Source of the DNA: Alphaproteobacteria bacterium
GTDB lineage: Bacteria > Pseudomonadota > Alphaproteobacteria > UBA828
Length of the DNA stretch: 64,000 nucleotides
Direction of reading: 5' to 3'
Assembly (NCBI GenBank): GCA_965220745.1
Contig: CBDCQT010000013.1
Span: 256,001-320,000, forward strand
This document shows positions 55,175 through 58,679 of this stretch, piece by piece. Made by a program: the position numbers and the translations under genes. The notes under the pieces were generated by a model that did not search any database, was not told where the DNA came from, and saw nothing but the letters and a program-made list of their open reading frames with translations. Each line of letters begins with the position of its first letter. The stretch's first letter is position 1.

Positions 55175-56491
55175 TTACTGCCCGTCCGGCGTCTTGGCGT
55201 TTAGGCCGGGATAGATGGGGAAGGCTTGGCAGAGTGTCCGCACCTCGGCACGGACGGCGTGCTCGACTGCCTCGTCGCGCGCGCCTGACGGCGCCATCGC
55301 GTGGAGCACATCGGCGATCCAGCCGCCGATACGGCGGAACTCGGCCTCGCCGAAGCCCCGCGTGGTCCCGGCTGCCGAGCCGAAGCGGAGGCCCGAGGTC
55401 ACGCGGGGAGGCTGCGTGTCGCCCGGCACCGCGTTCTTGTTGCAGGTGAGGCCGGCGGTTTCCAGGCTGTCGGAAGCGGCGGCTCCGGTGAGTCCGAGCG
55501 GGCGCAGGTCGGCGACCAGCAGCGGCGTGTCGGTGCCGCCGGCGACGATGGCGATGTCGCGCTGCATGAGCGAGTCTGCGAGGGCGCGGGCGTTGGCCAG
55601 CACCTGGGCGGCGTAAGCCTTGAACGAGGGCTTGAGCGCTTCGCCCAGGCAGACCGCCTTGGCCGCGACGGCGTTGAGGATCACGCTGCCCTGCACGCCG
55701 GGGAAGACGGCGCTGTCGAGCTTGCGCGCGAGCGCGGGATCGTCGGTGAGGATGAGGCCGCCGCGCGCGCCGCGCAGGTTCTTGTAGGTGGTCGCCGTGG
55801 TGACGTGGGCGTGGGGCAGGGGGCTCGGGTGCGCCCCGCCGGCGACCAGCCCGGCGAAGTGGGCCATGTCGGCGAGCAGGGTGGCGCCGACCGAGTCGGC
55901 GATGGCCCGAAAGCCGGCGAAGTCGATCGCCCTGGGGTAGGCCGAGCCGCCGCAGATGATGAGCCTGGGGCGGTGCTCTCGCGCCAGGAGCGCAACTTCG
56001 TCCATGTCAATGAAGCCCGCCGCATCGGTGCGATAGCGGATCGGATTGAACCACTTGCCGGTCAGGTTCACCGCTGCGCCGTGGCTCAGGTGGCCACCGG
56101 CATCGAGGGCCATGCTCAATACCGTGTCGCCCGGCTGCAGCAGCGCAAGAAAGGCCGCCTGGTTGGCCTGGCTGCCGGAATGGGGCTGGACGTTGGCGAA
56201 GGCGCAGCCGAAGAGCTGCTTGGCGCGCTCGATGGCGAGGGCCTCGATCTTGTCGGCGAACGCGGCGCCGCCGTAGTAGCGCGCGCCGGGCCGGCCTTCG
56301 ACGGTCTTGTTGACGATGACCGAGCCCAGGGCGTCGAGGCTCGCGCGGCTCACCAGGTTTTCCGACGCGATCAGCTCGATCCCGTCCTGCTGGCGGACGA
56401 GTTCGCCCGCGAGCGCCGCGTGGACCTCTGGGTCAACTGTTTGCAGGTGATCGAGGAAGTAACCCGGCTCGCGCGCCGGGGTGTCGCTCAT
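55175..56491 (-). CDS. Non-canonical serine hydroxymethyltransferase (alpha-methylserine hydroxymethyltransferase-like)
   Basis: [35 protein letters not shown]; divergent [24 protein letters not shown]. Confidence 0.88.
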
Positions 56492-57276
56492 TGGGCGGCC
56501 GCCGGGGCGAACAGGCAATCGTCGGCGAGCGGCACCACCGGCGAGAAATCGGTGTGATGCTTGTACTCGGGCCGGGCGAACGCGGTCTGGGCGTTGGCGA
56601 CCGGGTTGAGGATGAGCGAGAAGATCGCGCGGTCCCACGGCGACATGTTGCCCGGCGAGCCGTGGACCATCAGGTCGCCGAAGATGAGCACCGTGCCGGG
56701 CGGGCCGAGCGCGGGCGTGATGCCGCCCACGGCAATGAGGTTCGTGACGGTCTCGCGATCCACCACCCAGAGCGGATAGCTCGTGCTCGTCACGTCGTGG
56801 AAGGTCGGCAGCGGCTCGTGCCGGTGGGAGCCGGGGATGAAATAGAGCGGCCCGTTATAGTGGCTCACCTCGTCCAGCAGGATGTGCAGGTTGAGCGCTT
56901 GGGGGGCAGGAACGCCGTCGTCCCGGTGATGGGTAGCGAAGTCGTAGTGCCACTGCCAGACATCGCCCTCGAACGCCGCCTTAACATTGACCTTGACCTG
57001 CTGGATGTAGAGGTCGGGGCCGGCGATCTGCCGCGCCGGTTCGACCAGGCGCGGATGGCGCACGAGGCGGTCGATGAGGTCGCTCCGCTGGTGCAGTCCC
57101 ATGATGGTACGGGGCGCGGTGCCCGCCTTTTCCCCGATATTGGCCTCGCTCTCCTCATCGAAGAGCGGCGGCAGGGAGGCACGGATCGCCGCCACCTCGG
57201 CCGCGGAGAAGAGGCCGGGGAGGATCAGCAGGCCGTCCCGGCGGAAGACCTCAAGCTGTTCGTCGTTCAACTTCAA
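56488..57276 (-). CDS. PhyH-family Fe(II)/2OG dioxygenase (ectoine/proline hydroxylase-like)
   Basis: [44 protein letters not shown] start; stop overlaps the SHMT start. Confidence 0.88.
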
Positions 57277-57380
57277 CGGGCCGGCCTCGCCGCCCGCTCG
57301 GAGTCCCAGGCGAGAAGGGAGTGGGGCTCTCCCGCCAGCGGCAGGGAGAAGCCCCGAACCCCGTTACGGATCGCGACAGC

Positions 57381-58679
57381 CTATTCGGCGGCGGCAGGCG
57401 TGACGGCCCGGCGGCGCTTGGCCAGTGCGATCTCGTTCGGCGCGCGGTGATAGGCGCCGTCCTTCATGATCATGAGCAGGTTGTCGGCGTCCTGCATGAT
57501 GGAGACGTCCTTGGTCGGGTCGCCGTCCACCAGCAGCAGGTCGGCGAGGTAGCCTTCCTTGACCATGCCGACGTTGAGCCCCATGAGCTCGCCGCCCCAC
57601 TTCGTGGCGCCGATCAGCGCCTCGGCCGGCGAGTAGCCGAAGTGGTTGACGAAGTGCTCCATGTCGCGGGCATTGGCGCCGATCGGGTTCCAGGCGAAGC
57701 CGTAGTCGCCACCCGGCATGGCCCGGATGCCGCGCTTCCGCACTTCCTGATAGGTGCGGATGGTGTGCTCCATCTTGTAGAACATGTTGTAGCTCTCGGC
57801 GATCTCGCGGGTGATGCCCCACTCGCCGGCCTCGTGCGCGAACGTGTAGACGATGCCGAAAGCCGGGGCCATGAAGATGCTCTTCTTCTTGGCTTCCAGC
57901 ATGTCGAGGGTCTTATTGGTCGCGTAGTCGGCGTGGTAGATGATGTTGATGCCGTGCTTGAGCGCGAGGCGCACCGCCTTGTCCGCCCTGGCATGGGTGA
58001 TGATGTTGACGCCGGCTTCGCGGGCGACTTCGGCGGCCGCTGCGACCTCGGCATCGAAGTAGGTGATTTTCTCGGACTGCCCGGGCTGGCAGAATTCGTC
58101 GCCCGAGATGTTGATCTTCAGGTTGTCCACGCCCTCGCGCACGCAGAGCCGGCAGGCCTTGCGCACTTCGTCCGGCCCGTCGGCGATGAAGCCCACTGAC
58201 TCCTGGTGCATGTGCCACTTGCGTTCGTCGCCGAGCCCGCCTGACGACACGATCTCGGGCGAGGCCGCCTTGATGCGCGGCCCCGGATAGCGCCCGGCAT
58301 TGATCACGTTGCGCAGTACCGGCTCGATACGGATCTTGTTGTAGCCGACGCCGGCAGCCGAGAAGAGGCTCGTGAAGCCGTGGTCGATCATCGTGCGCGC
58401 ATTGTCGAGTGCGAGCACCATGTGCTCCTCCGGCGGGAGCGCCCCGATCTCCGGCAGGGTCGTACTGTCGATGTAGCAGACGTGGGCGTGGGGCTCGACA
58501 AGCCCTGGCATCAGGGTGGCGCCCGCGCCGTCCACCACGGTCGCGCCGTTGGCCCTGATCTTGCCCTTGCCGCGGGCGACCTTCTTGATGAGGTTGCCCT
58601 GCAGCTTCACCTCGCCCGCGAACGGGCGCTTGGCGTTGCCGTCGAAAATCATCACGTTCTTGAAGAGGGTCTCTGCCAT
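57381..58679 (-). CDS. Amidohydrolase (prolidase/Xaa-Pro dipeptidase-like)
   Basis: MPGLVEPHAH, LKINISG, THAR, IYHA, GGDYG, GYLADLLLVDGDP. Confidence 0.9.
   Translation of the reverse strand: MAETLFKNVMIFDGNAKRPFAGEVKLQGNLIKKVARGKGKIRANGATVVDGAGATLMPGLVEPHAHVCYIDSTTLPEIGALPPEEHMVLALDNARTMIDHGFTSLFSAAGVGYNKIRIEPVLRNVINAGRYPGPRIKAASPEIVSSGGLGDERKWHMHQESVGFIADGPDEVRKACRLCVREGVDNLKINISGDEFCQPGQSEKITYFDAEVAAAAEVAREAGVNIITHARADKAVRLALKHGINIIYHADYATNKTLDMLEAKKKSIFMAPAFGIVYTFAHEAGEWGITREIAESYNMFYKMEHTIRTYQEVRKRGIRAMPGGDYGFAWNPIGANARDMEHFVNHFGYSPAEALIGATKWGGELMGLNVGMVKEGYLADLLLVDGDPTKDVSIMQDADNLLMIMKDGAYHRAPNEIALAKRRRAVTPAAAE

Follow-up and report, generated by a model that had tools for sequence, protein, structure and literature searches.

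This study addresses the question of whether a dioxygenase and a divergent serine hydroxymethyltransferase (SHMT), encoded by overlapping genes in an alphaproteobacterial genome, act in sequence on the same amino acid. The window considered (the whole stretch of 64,000 nucleotides from contig CBDCQT010000013.1, with a G+C content of about 67%) carries both genes on the reverse strand, together with the gene of an amidohydrolase directly upstream:

55175-56491, minus strand: SHMT paralog, 438 amino acids counted from an internal ATG
56488-57276, minus strand: Fe(II)/2-oxoglutarate (2OG) dioxygenase of the PhyH family, free-amino-acid hydroxylase branch, 262 amino acids from a TTG start
57381-58730, minus strand: metal-dependent amidohydrolase of the Xaa-Pro dipeptidase / L-Arg carboxypeptidase / ochratoxinase type, 449 amino acids from a GTG
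56488-56491, minus strand: ATGA overlap of the PhyH stop codon and the SHMT start codon, read from the DNA

Based on sequence comparison, the pair is tentatively proposed to be a catabolic module that hydroxylates and then cleaves an amino acid whose alpha carbon is fully substituted, for example 2-aminoisobutyrate (Aib), isovaline or alpha-methylserine, an answer that we consider possible though somewhat short of probable. A sequential, catabolic module is favored because the two genes are coupled, the dioxygenase belongs with hydroxylases of free amino acids, the SHMT combines a pocket like that of 2-methylserine hydroxymethyltransferase (MSHMT) with an intact folate site, the pair recurs, and a LysR-type regulator accompanies it in three loci.

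Organization of the gene pair

At the junction of the two genes (...GCC GCC CAA TGA GCG ACA...), the SHMT start codon ATG occupies 56491-56489 and the PhyH stop codon TGA 56490-56488, giving a 4-base overlap that is also found in the open reading frame coordinates of loci L019 and L046. As read from the DNA, the overlap is a predicted translational coupling of the dioxygenase and the SHMT paralog. The amidohydrolase gene is co-oriented and separated from the dioxygenase gene by 104 nucleotides; its start may be either the GTG at 58730 or the next in-frame ATG at 58679, which was the limit used in a preliminary description of this DNA. That description had claimed both the ATGA overlap and a co-oriented, prolidase-like amidohydrolase upstream, and both were borne out, the former by direct reading of the DNA and the latter by the gap and by profile and PDB matches of the Xaa-Pro dipeptidase or carboxypeptidase type.

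A second, non-canonical SHMT

The SHMT paralog matches the Pfam SHMT family over positions 1-399 (458.9 bits) and passes the general NCBI SHMT model NF000586 (533.6 bits, cut-off 335). Three odd motifs had been reported for it and are present exactly as described: NKTVEG, in which T63 corresponds to Y55 of the E. coli enzyme; Y236 in place of H228, beside K237, the lysine that binds pyridoxal 5'-phosphate (PLP); and S269 in place of G263. Among the best 120 database homologs (70-100% identity), TTYKNL and PGxQGS occur in all 120 and NKTVEG in 119, and those homologs that bear names are all labelled plain SHMT. Because the motifs are kept in nearly all of these proteins and the gene order recurs in many loci, they are not considered a product of chance.

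The genome that holds the window (G000; 13 contigs, 99.96% complete) encodes two SHMT genes. A search for a canonical glyA elsewhere, suggested by the preliminary description, located one on contig C5 in the housekeeping order rpiB-glyA-nrdR-ribD, with a score of 561 bits and the motifs NKYAEG, TTTTHKTLRGPRGG and PGLQGGPLEH; the window SHMT is 60.7% identical to it. The window SHMT is a paralog and not the housekeeping glyA. Additionally, a canonical copy was present in all 11 genomes with the odd type that were examined (the window genome and ten others).

At 14 positions (E. coli numbering), a residue that is at least 90% conserved in canonical SHMT is swapped for another conserved residue in the window clade, the replacements including Y55T, A56V, T128S, H228Y, T230N, G263S, L265I and H267N. 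All 16 canonical rows have the active-site residues Y55, H228 and G263, and all 32 clade rows have T, Y and S in their place; the window protein, with T63, Y236 and S269, differs from canonical GlyA at all three. By comparison, S35, E57, Y64, G125, H126, S175, D200, H203, T226, K229, R235, F257, P258, N347 and R363 are kept in every one of the 32 clade rows, L127 in 30 and L121 in 29. These positions line the PLP, substrate-carboxylate and folate sites of the E. coli structure, the residue roles being those described for the E. coli and Bacillus enzymes. Their conservation argues for folate dependence of the paralog. The plasmid collection held no SHMT of this TTYK type (best match 62% identity, canonical type), and the ESM Atlas search returned generic SHMT clusters only.

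Relation to 2-methylserine hydroxymethyltransferase

MSHMT was reportedly described by Nozaki et al. in 2008 and 2009, and alpha-methylserine aldolase (Variovorax, Ralstonia, Bosea) by Nozaki in 2008. The MSHMT label as applied here relies on UniRef names and on a study of TRIS degradation by Pseudomonas hunanensis Teo1 (PMC10848231), in which similarity to the Nozaki enzymes is the basis for calling the cluster II glyA of plasmid p1_Teo1 an mSHMT. The mSHMT of the TRIS plasmid (locus L036) has NKTVEG, TCTTTKTLRGARGG and PGVQGSAHLA, a pattern shared by five further plasmid homologs (Paracoccus, Ensifer, Ruegeria, Shinella and Mesorhizobium), and UniRef names many members of this group 2-methylserine hydroxymethyltransferase. 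The earlier statement that NKT.EG and PGVQGS occur in such enzymes therefore holds for L036 and for the UniRef-named proteins. At the Ensifer, Shinella and Mesorhizobium loci (three of the five), a LysR gene is followed by glyA and purU, accompanied by folD, a D-serine ammonia-lyase gene or both.

The window clade and the MSHMT group share Y55T (T or S in MSHMT), A56V/L, T128S, G263S and Q47L, and the shared MSHMT pocket changes T/S55, S128 and S263 are all found in the window protein. The residues that mark the MSHMT group itself (11 rows), namely T228 (11/11), F64 (10/11) with H65 (11/11), and H265 (11/11), are Y236, Y72-Y73 and I271 in the window protein.

A quick tree (55 rows) recovered the window clade, with 28 rows and support 99, as sister to the MSHMT group (6 rows, support 100), joined at 99, and both were nested among alphaproteobacterial GlyA. 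A careful tree (59 rows, LG+G4, ultrafast bootstrap / SH-aLRT), which omitted 11 near-duplicate or long-branch rows and added 11 new loci and four UniRef-named MSHMTs, recovered a non-canonical superclade of 43 rows (100/100) holding both the window paralog and the MSHMTs. The comparison with GlyA and MSHMT asked for beforehand confirmed the kinship: within the superclade, the window core clade (23 rows, 100/100) includes the paralog, which falls outside the MSHMT group (10 rows, 100/99). The superclade backbone was not resolved, and the Tyr-228 type may therefore be paraphyletic to MSHMT.

MSHMT (EC 2.1.2.7) is a tetrahydrofolate-dependent enzyme that converts alpha-methyl-L-serine to D-alanine. 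Overall, the window paralog resembles it in its SHMT fold, in its place in the fully supported superclade, in being a second copy beside a canonical glyA, and in the LysR-type regulator found at some loci; it differs in being coupled to a dioxygenase, which is absent at all six plasmid MSHMT loci. Alpha-methylserine aldolase, as described in the review PMC7918591, is likewise an SHMT-related PLP enzyme, active on alpha-methylserine. That aldolase is independent of tetrahydrofolate (THF), whereas the conserved folate site of the window paralog argues for folate dependence; the Tyr-228 clade may still be a THF-independent aldolase of this kind.

The dioxygenase and the carbon it would attack

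The dioxygenase matches Pfam PhyH with 102.8 bits. On the EctD model TIGR02408 it scores 150.6 bits, under the cut-off of 336.5, and it is thus not assigned as an ectoine hydroxylase equivalog. Its sequence matches in the PDB are the trans-3/4-proline hydroxylase H11 (162 bits), the leucine hydroxylase GriE (146 bits) and EctD (134 bits). A structure predicted with AlphaFold from 46 homologs (predicted local distance difference test 90.4, predicted template modelling score 0.90) was compared with solved structures, giving the following values for Z score, root-mean-square deviation (rmsd), aligned length and identity:

GriE: Z 34.5, rmsd 1.7 Å, 254 residues aligned, 33% identity
Proline hydroxylase H11: Z 33.7, rmsd 2.0 Å, 255 residues aligned, 36% identity
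EctD: Z 29.9, rmsd 2.0 Å, 244 residues aligned, 35% identity
Human PhyH: Z 23.6, rmsd 2.7 Å, 222 residues aligned, 14% identity

H110, D112, H205 and R216 are invariant among the 46 homologs, and by profile, HxD...H motif and Arg the protein is a member of the PhyH family; by analogy with other family members, H110, D112 and H205 are presumably the iron ligands and R216 the 2OG-binding Arg. Because GriE, H11 and EctD are its nearest solved relatives, the dioxygenase is placed among the family members that act as hydroxylases on free amino acids or on cyclic derivatives of amino acids. It shares with these three the PhyH-type fold over nearly the whole length (33-37% identity) and the conserved iron and 2OG ligands, but belongs to a distinct subfamily (at least 55% identity inside, 45-50% to the next group). 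GriE, a leucine 5-hydroxylase, provides a precedent for attack on a terminal methyl group. None of GriE, H11 and EctD is known to pair with an SHMT.

In the main rival to the proposed module, the dioxygenase would make a 3-hydroxy-L-amino acid and the SHMT paralog, acting as a folate-independent retro-aldolase, would split it into glycine and an aldehyde. Several points favor it. According to their entry titles, the close relatives EctD and H11 hydroxylate the carbon adjoining the carboxyl-bearing carbon; folate-free cleavage of 3-hydroxy amino acids by SHMTs is established; neither folD nor purU lies beside the window pair; and Y64 and Y65 are retained as in canonical SHMT. The pair would then be a bacterial counterpart of two steps in carnitine synthesis, trimethyllysine hydroxylase and hydroxytrimethyllysine aldolase (an SHMT), where hydroxylation of the amino acid by a 2OG dioxygenase likewise precedes rupture of the bond between C-alpha and C-beta by a PLP enzyme of SHMT type. 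The carnitine system differs, however, in being eukaryotic, in having unlinked genes and a hydroxylase of another 2OG family, and in using an ordinary SHMT as the aldolase. Against the rival, the window paralog groups with MSHMT and has its pocket changes, the pair is also found with a true MSHMT-type gene (genome G362, below), an aldehyde dehydrogenase is adjacent to the pair in none of the annotated loci, and the folate-site residues conserved in the clade would be needless in a folate-independent aldolase. We regard beta-hydroxylation followed by retro-aldol cleavage as rather unlikely.

The dioxygenase is one of many in this organism: the window genome has 22 PhyH-family matches, all above the Pfam cut-off, against none in 14 control genomes, so that 2OG dioxygenases of this type are strongly expanded. 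Its closest PhyH paralog in the genome (54% identical; G000:C7:80900-81673, L086 6871-7698) is flanked by two EamA transporters, with an Old-Yellow-Enzyme-type flavoprotein, an alpha/beta hydrolase and a ferredoxin reductase nearby and with SHMT absent. Another PhyH gene lies 2.7 kb upstream of the canonical glyA and was judged unrelated because cysNC and rpiB intervene.

Recurrence of the pair across genomes

The recurrence of the pair was followed in a genome collection, a metagenome collection and a class-level sample of 401 genomes; since the collections overlap and related genomes are not independent, the figures given here are counts and not statistics. In the genome collection, 15 of 25 loci carried an SHMT of the window type, and PhyH was directly upstream in 9 of these 15 (L011-L019, 76-94% SHMT identity). 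In the metagenome collection, in which L052 repeats L025 and L040 and L041 are near-identical, 16 of 19 loci were of the type and 8 of the 16 had PhyH directly upstream (L039-L046, 70-90% SHMT identity).

Within the class-level sample, the distinct PhyH subfamily (55-66% identity) was found in 11 genomes besides the window's, other matches having 45-50% identity; the tally of PhyH matches includes one unpublished genome, G250, on which no claim is built. An SHMT of the superclade directly follows PhyH in 3 of the 11, namely G139, G252 (both with TTYKSLRGARG) and G362. The G362 enzyme has the MSHMT-type motifs TTTKTLRGARG and PGVQGSAHLQ, and a CN-hydrolase gene comes next. Regardless of adjacency, a TTYK-type SHMT is encoded in 5 of the 11 genomes, an MSHMT-type in 2 and neither in 4, so that 7 of 11 have a non-canonical SHMT. 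The TTYK motif itself occurs in 12 of the 401 genomes, with 0 matches to the reversed control pattern.

In the careful tree, PhyH-linked SHMTs fall in at least three lineages: that of the window, that of G139 and G252, and that of G362. The pair persists at SHMT identities as low as 58-64%, and the two proteins diverge in parallel, which fits inheritance of PhyH and SHMT as a unit. In L019, L045 and L122 a LysR regulator gene runs divergently from the pair, the same layout as in the MSHMT clusters.

A possible route for quaternary amino acids

Combined, these results suggest a sequence of steps for the proposed module. The Fe(II)/2OG dioxygenase would hydroxylate a beta carbon of the amino acid, which in an alpha-methyl substrate is the methyl group, giving an alpha-substituted serine. 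The coupled SHMT paralog, judging from its family, would then move the new hydroxymethyl carbon onto tetrahydrofolate and leave an ordinary amino acid, probably in the D form. An alpha-methyl amino acid is favored as the substrate, since alpha-substituted serines are what the closest characterised relatives of the PLP enzyme use. A more specific version, in which the pair would strip a methyl group bonded to carbon from amino acids with a quaternary carbon (Aib, isovaline, alpha-methylserine and similar compounds) by a new bacterial route, with a new MSHMT-related class of enzyme with Tyr beside the PLP lysine that passes the carbon to tetrahydrofolate, is conceivable but remains doubtful.

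In the closest relatives, a preceding step may be contributed by the amidohydrolase, which would release the amino acid from an N-acyl or dipeptide precursor. The protein matches Pfam Amidohydro_1 with 74.3 bits, and on the Caulobacter Xaa-Pro dipeptidase model NF051886 it reaches 175 bits against a cut-off of 500, too low for an equivalog. Family-level membership holds, with PDB matches of 96-123 bits to 9kov, Cc2672 (3mtw), 2qs8 and 4c5y; it resembles Cc2672, 2qs8 and ochratoxinase, which cut off the C-terminal amino acid of a dipeptide or an N-acyl amino acid. The amidohydrolase gene is directly upstream of PhyH at 8 of the 15 genome loci and 5 of the 16 metagenome loci of the SHMT type, all with at least 84% SHMT identity. 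It may therefore supply the substrate, a link restricted to these closest relatives.

The nearest published parallel is the Aib pathway of Rhodococcus wratislaviensis, in which, according to PMC7782822, the three-component di-iron monooxygenase AibH1H2 acts on Aib, its product D-methylserine is oxidised to methylaminomalonate, and the SHMT homolog AibC is a methylaminomalonate decarboxylase without hydroxymethyltransferase activity. The preliminary description had taken the hydroxylase of the published pathway to precede an MSHMT step; this does not agree with PMC7782822, in which AibC is a decarboxylase and no MSHMT step follows. The two systems are alike in hydroxylating a methyl group on an alpha,alpha-dialkyl amino acid and in using an SHMT homolog at a later step, which for the window module is proposed only; they differ in that a single 2OG enzyme is the hydroxylase in the window and that the window SHMT paralog keeps its folate site. 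A literature search on pairing of PhyH with SHMT, with subscription journals outside its scope, found none and surfaced only the Rhodococcus Aib paper and an unrelated one.

Contexts without the dioxygenase

The SHMT type is also found in neighbourhoods without PhyH, which share no single theme. L020 and L047-L050 share a conserved gene order: fumarase, a D-cysteate sulfo-lyase-like PALP enzyme, Abhydrolase_11, SHMT, TfoX_N, RHH_4 and PPK2; the PALP enzyme (D-cysteine desulfhydrase / D-cysteate sulfo-lyase family) is encoded two genes upstream of the SHMT (L047 2645-3682, L049 2948-3988) and scores 383-388 bits on CuyA, for which the cut-off is 450. A choline sulfatase directly follows the same SHMT type in L024 (7272-8849, 599.8 bits) and L021 (about 7260-8855), and a gene of the sarcosine-oxidase-beta family (SoxB) does so in L054 (1621-2769, 653 bits). 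Acyl-CoA dehydrogenases, 3-hydroxyisobutyrate dehydrogenase, hemB and EF-P were also seen.

Several of the observations weigh against the proposed sequential action on a quaternary amino acid. PhyH is absent from 6 of the 15 genome loci and 8 of the 16 metagenome loci, three of these eight metagenome loci being too short upstream to judge. In the class-level sample, 8 of the 11 PhyH orthologs have no adjacent SHMT and lie in varied, unrelated contexts, and 4 of the 11 genomes are without any non-canonical SHMT. The choline sulfatase and SoxB-family neighbours suggest ordinary one-carbon (C1) and glycine metabolism. The clade has Tyr and not the Thr of MSHMT at position 228, YY in place of FH at 64/65, and Ile or Leu where MSHMT has His at 265, and its substrate therefore need not be an alpha-methylserine. 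Furthermore, the folD, purU and D-serine dehydratase genes that accompany plasmid MSHMT are absent from the window. Full-text searches for a 2OG enzyme that hydroxylates Aib found none, and none is known to us. The earlier expectation that the pairing is conserved accordingly stands in part: the pair persists down to the limit of SHMT identity noted above and once with an MSHMT-type gene, but PhyH is missing from about half of the loci. Similarly, the suggestion of an alternative hydroxylate-and-cleave module is supported by the pairing, by the enzyme families and by the kinship with MSHMT, while its substrate and chemistry are proposals.

The contexts without PhyH keep alive a second explanation, in which the enzymes do not act in sequence: the dioxygenase would be an oxidative demethylase or osmolyte hydroxylase, and the paralog a catabolic C1 or glycine-serine isozyme that handles the released glycine or methylene-THF. 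The placement of the SHMT type directly upstream of choline sulfatase and of the sarcosine-oxidase-beta-family gene, the passing of the general SHMT model, and the occurrence of the PhyH subfamily in genomes lacking any such SHMT all agree with it. However, a canonical SHMT is already present in every genome checked, the loss of the otherwise invariant Y55, H228 and G263 would be left unexplained in an isozyme, and the 4-base overlap together with co-inheritance (both proteins to about 58-64% identity together) suggests a tighter link. Independent action is thus considered improbable.

A further gene association was set apart from the proposed hydroxylation and cleavage. In L015, L016 and L043 the SHMT is followed, after a gap of 260-360 bases, by an LLM-class oxidoreductase and a diaminopropionate ammonia-lyase (439 bits, cut-off 276), and then by mfd:

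L015 7658-9846: LLM and diaminopropionate ammonia-lyase block
L016 7559-9727: the same block
L043 6664-8856: the same block
G000:C13:979675-980868: the corresponding location in the window's own genome

The ortholog in the window genome (87% identical) lies about 670 kb away beside mfd, and the association was therefore treated as a separate block.

Other observations were made at related loci. Two unrelated loci carry IS1595-family transposase genes no more than a few kb from the pair (L015 981-2051, L124 2198-3136). In genome G094, a type II CRISPR Cas9 gene (577 bits) and cas1 stand beside a TTYK-type SHMT (L146 1656-5837). Genes of the valine-catabolism type (acyl-CoA dehydrogenase, ECH_2 hydrolase and 3-hydroxyisobutyrate dehydrogenase) are found beside the PhyH ortholog in G394 (L119 2683-5805) and also beside a TTYK-type SHMT in G198 (L140 8390-11579), which may be chance.

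Surroundings of the locus in the window

The genes on either side of the pair and the amidohydrolase were considered as possible parts of the module:

53728-55110, minus strand: MATE efflux gene, downstream of the SHMT paralog, conserved only in close relatives
58884-60287 (plus strand), 60444-61475 (minus strand) and 61630-63090 (plus strand): flanking stretches with two glutathione S-transferase genes, an F420/LLM-class oxidoreductase and an MlrC-like M81 peptidase

All of these were dropped as module parts: the MATE gene is shared only with L011 and L012, and the glutathione S-transferase, LLM-class and MlrC-like genes are conserved only in close relatives. The MlrC-like peptidase of the window scores 376.9 bits against a cut-off of 999.

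The MATE gene bears on a third explanation, namely a biosynthetic pair in which the paralog would use glycine or a D-amino acid to make an amino acid bearing an alpha-hydroxymethyl or beta-hydroxy group, which the dioxygenase would tailor for a secondary metabolite. An exporter gene downstream in the window fits such a role, as does the occurrence of SHMT-like enzymes and PhyH-type hydroxylases such as GriE in natural-product pathways. The exporter gene is nonetheless present only in the window and those two loci, no nonribosomal peptide synthetase, polyketide synthase, ligase or other biosynthetic gene occurs in any of the annotated loci, and divergent LysR-type regulators and an amidohydrolase are typical of catabolic operons. 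A biosynthetic role is accordingly regarded as very improbable.

Downstream of the MATE gene, at 51278-53648 (minus strand), the window encodes a ChvG-like sensor kinase and an OmpR-type response regulator in two long overlapping open reading frames; the kinase scores 418.5 bits on the Caulobacter ChvG model, which has a cut-off of 740.

Conclusions

Amino acids with a quaternary alpha carbon resist both transamination and ordinary proteolysis, occur in peptaibol antibiotics and in man-made compounds, and have few known breakdown pathways. If the paralog is merely a catabolic SHMT isozyme, the finding described here is a minor one. If the proposed hydroxylation and folate-linked cleavage are correct, the pair would constitute a third, mechanistically distinct Aib-type pathway, beside dialkylglycine decarboxylase and the Rhodococcus di-iron system, and a compact module of just two genes, one for a 2OG hydroxylase and one for a C1 transferase linked to folate, would introduce a catabolic logic of a new kind. 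Two biocatalysts of practical interest would follow: a hydroxylase for the methyl C-H bonds of alpha,alpha-dialkyl amino acids, and an enzyme for making alpha-substituted serines stereoselectively. For the SHMT family, a function would be defined for a widespread, unannotated clade of paralogs.

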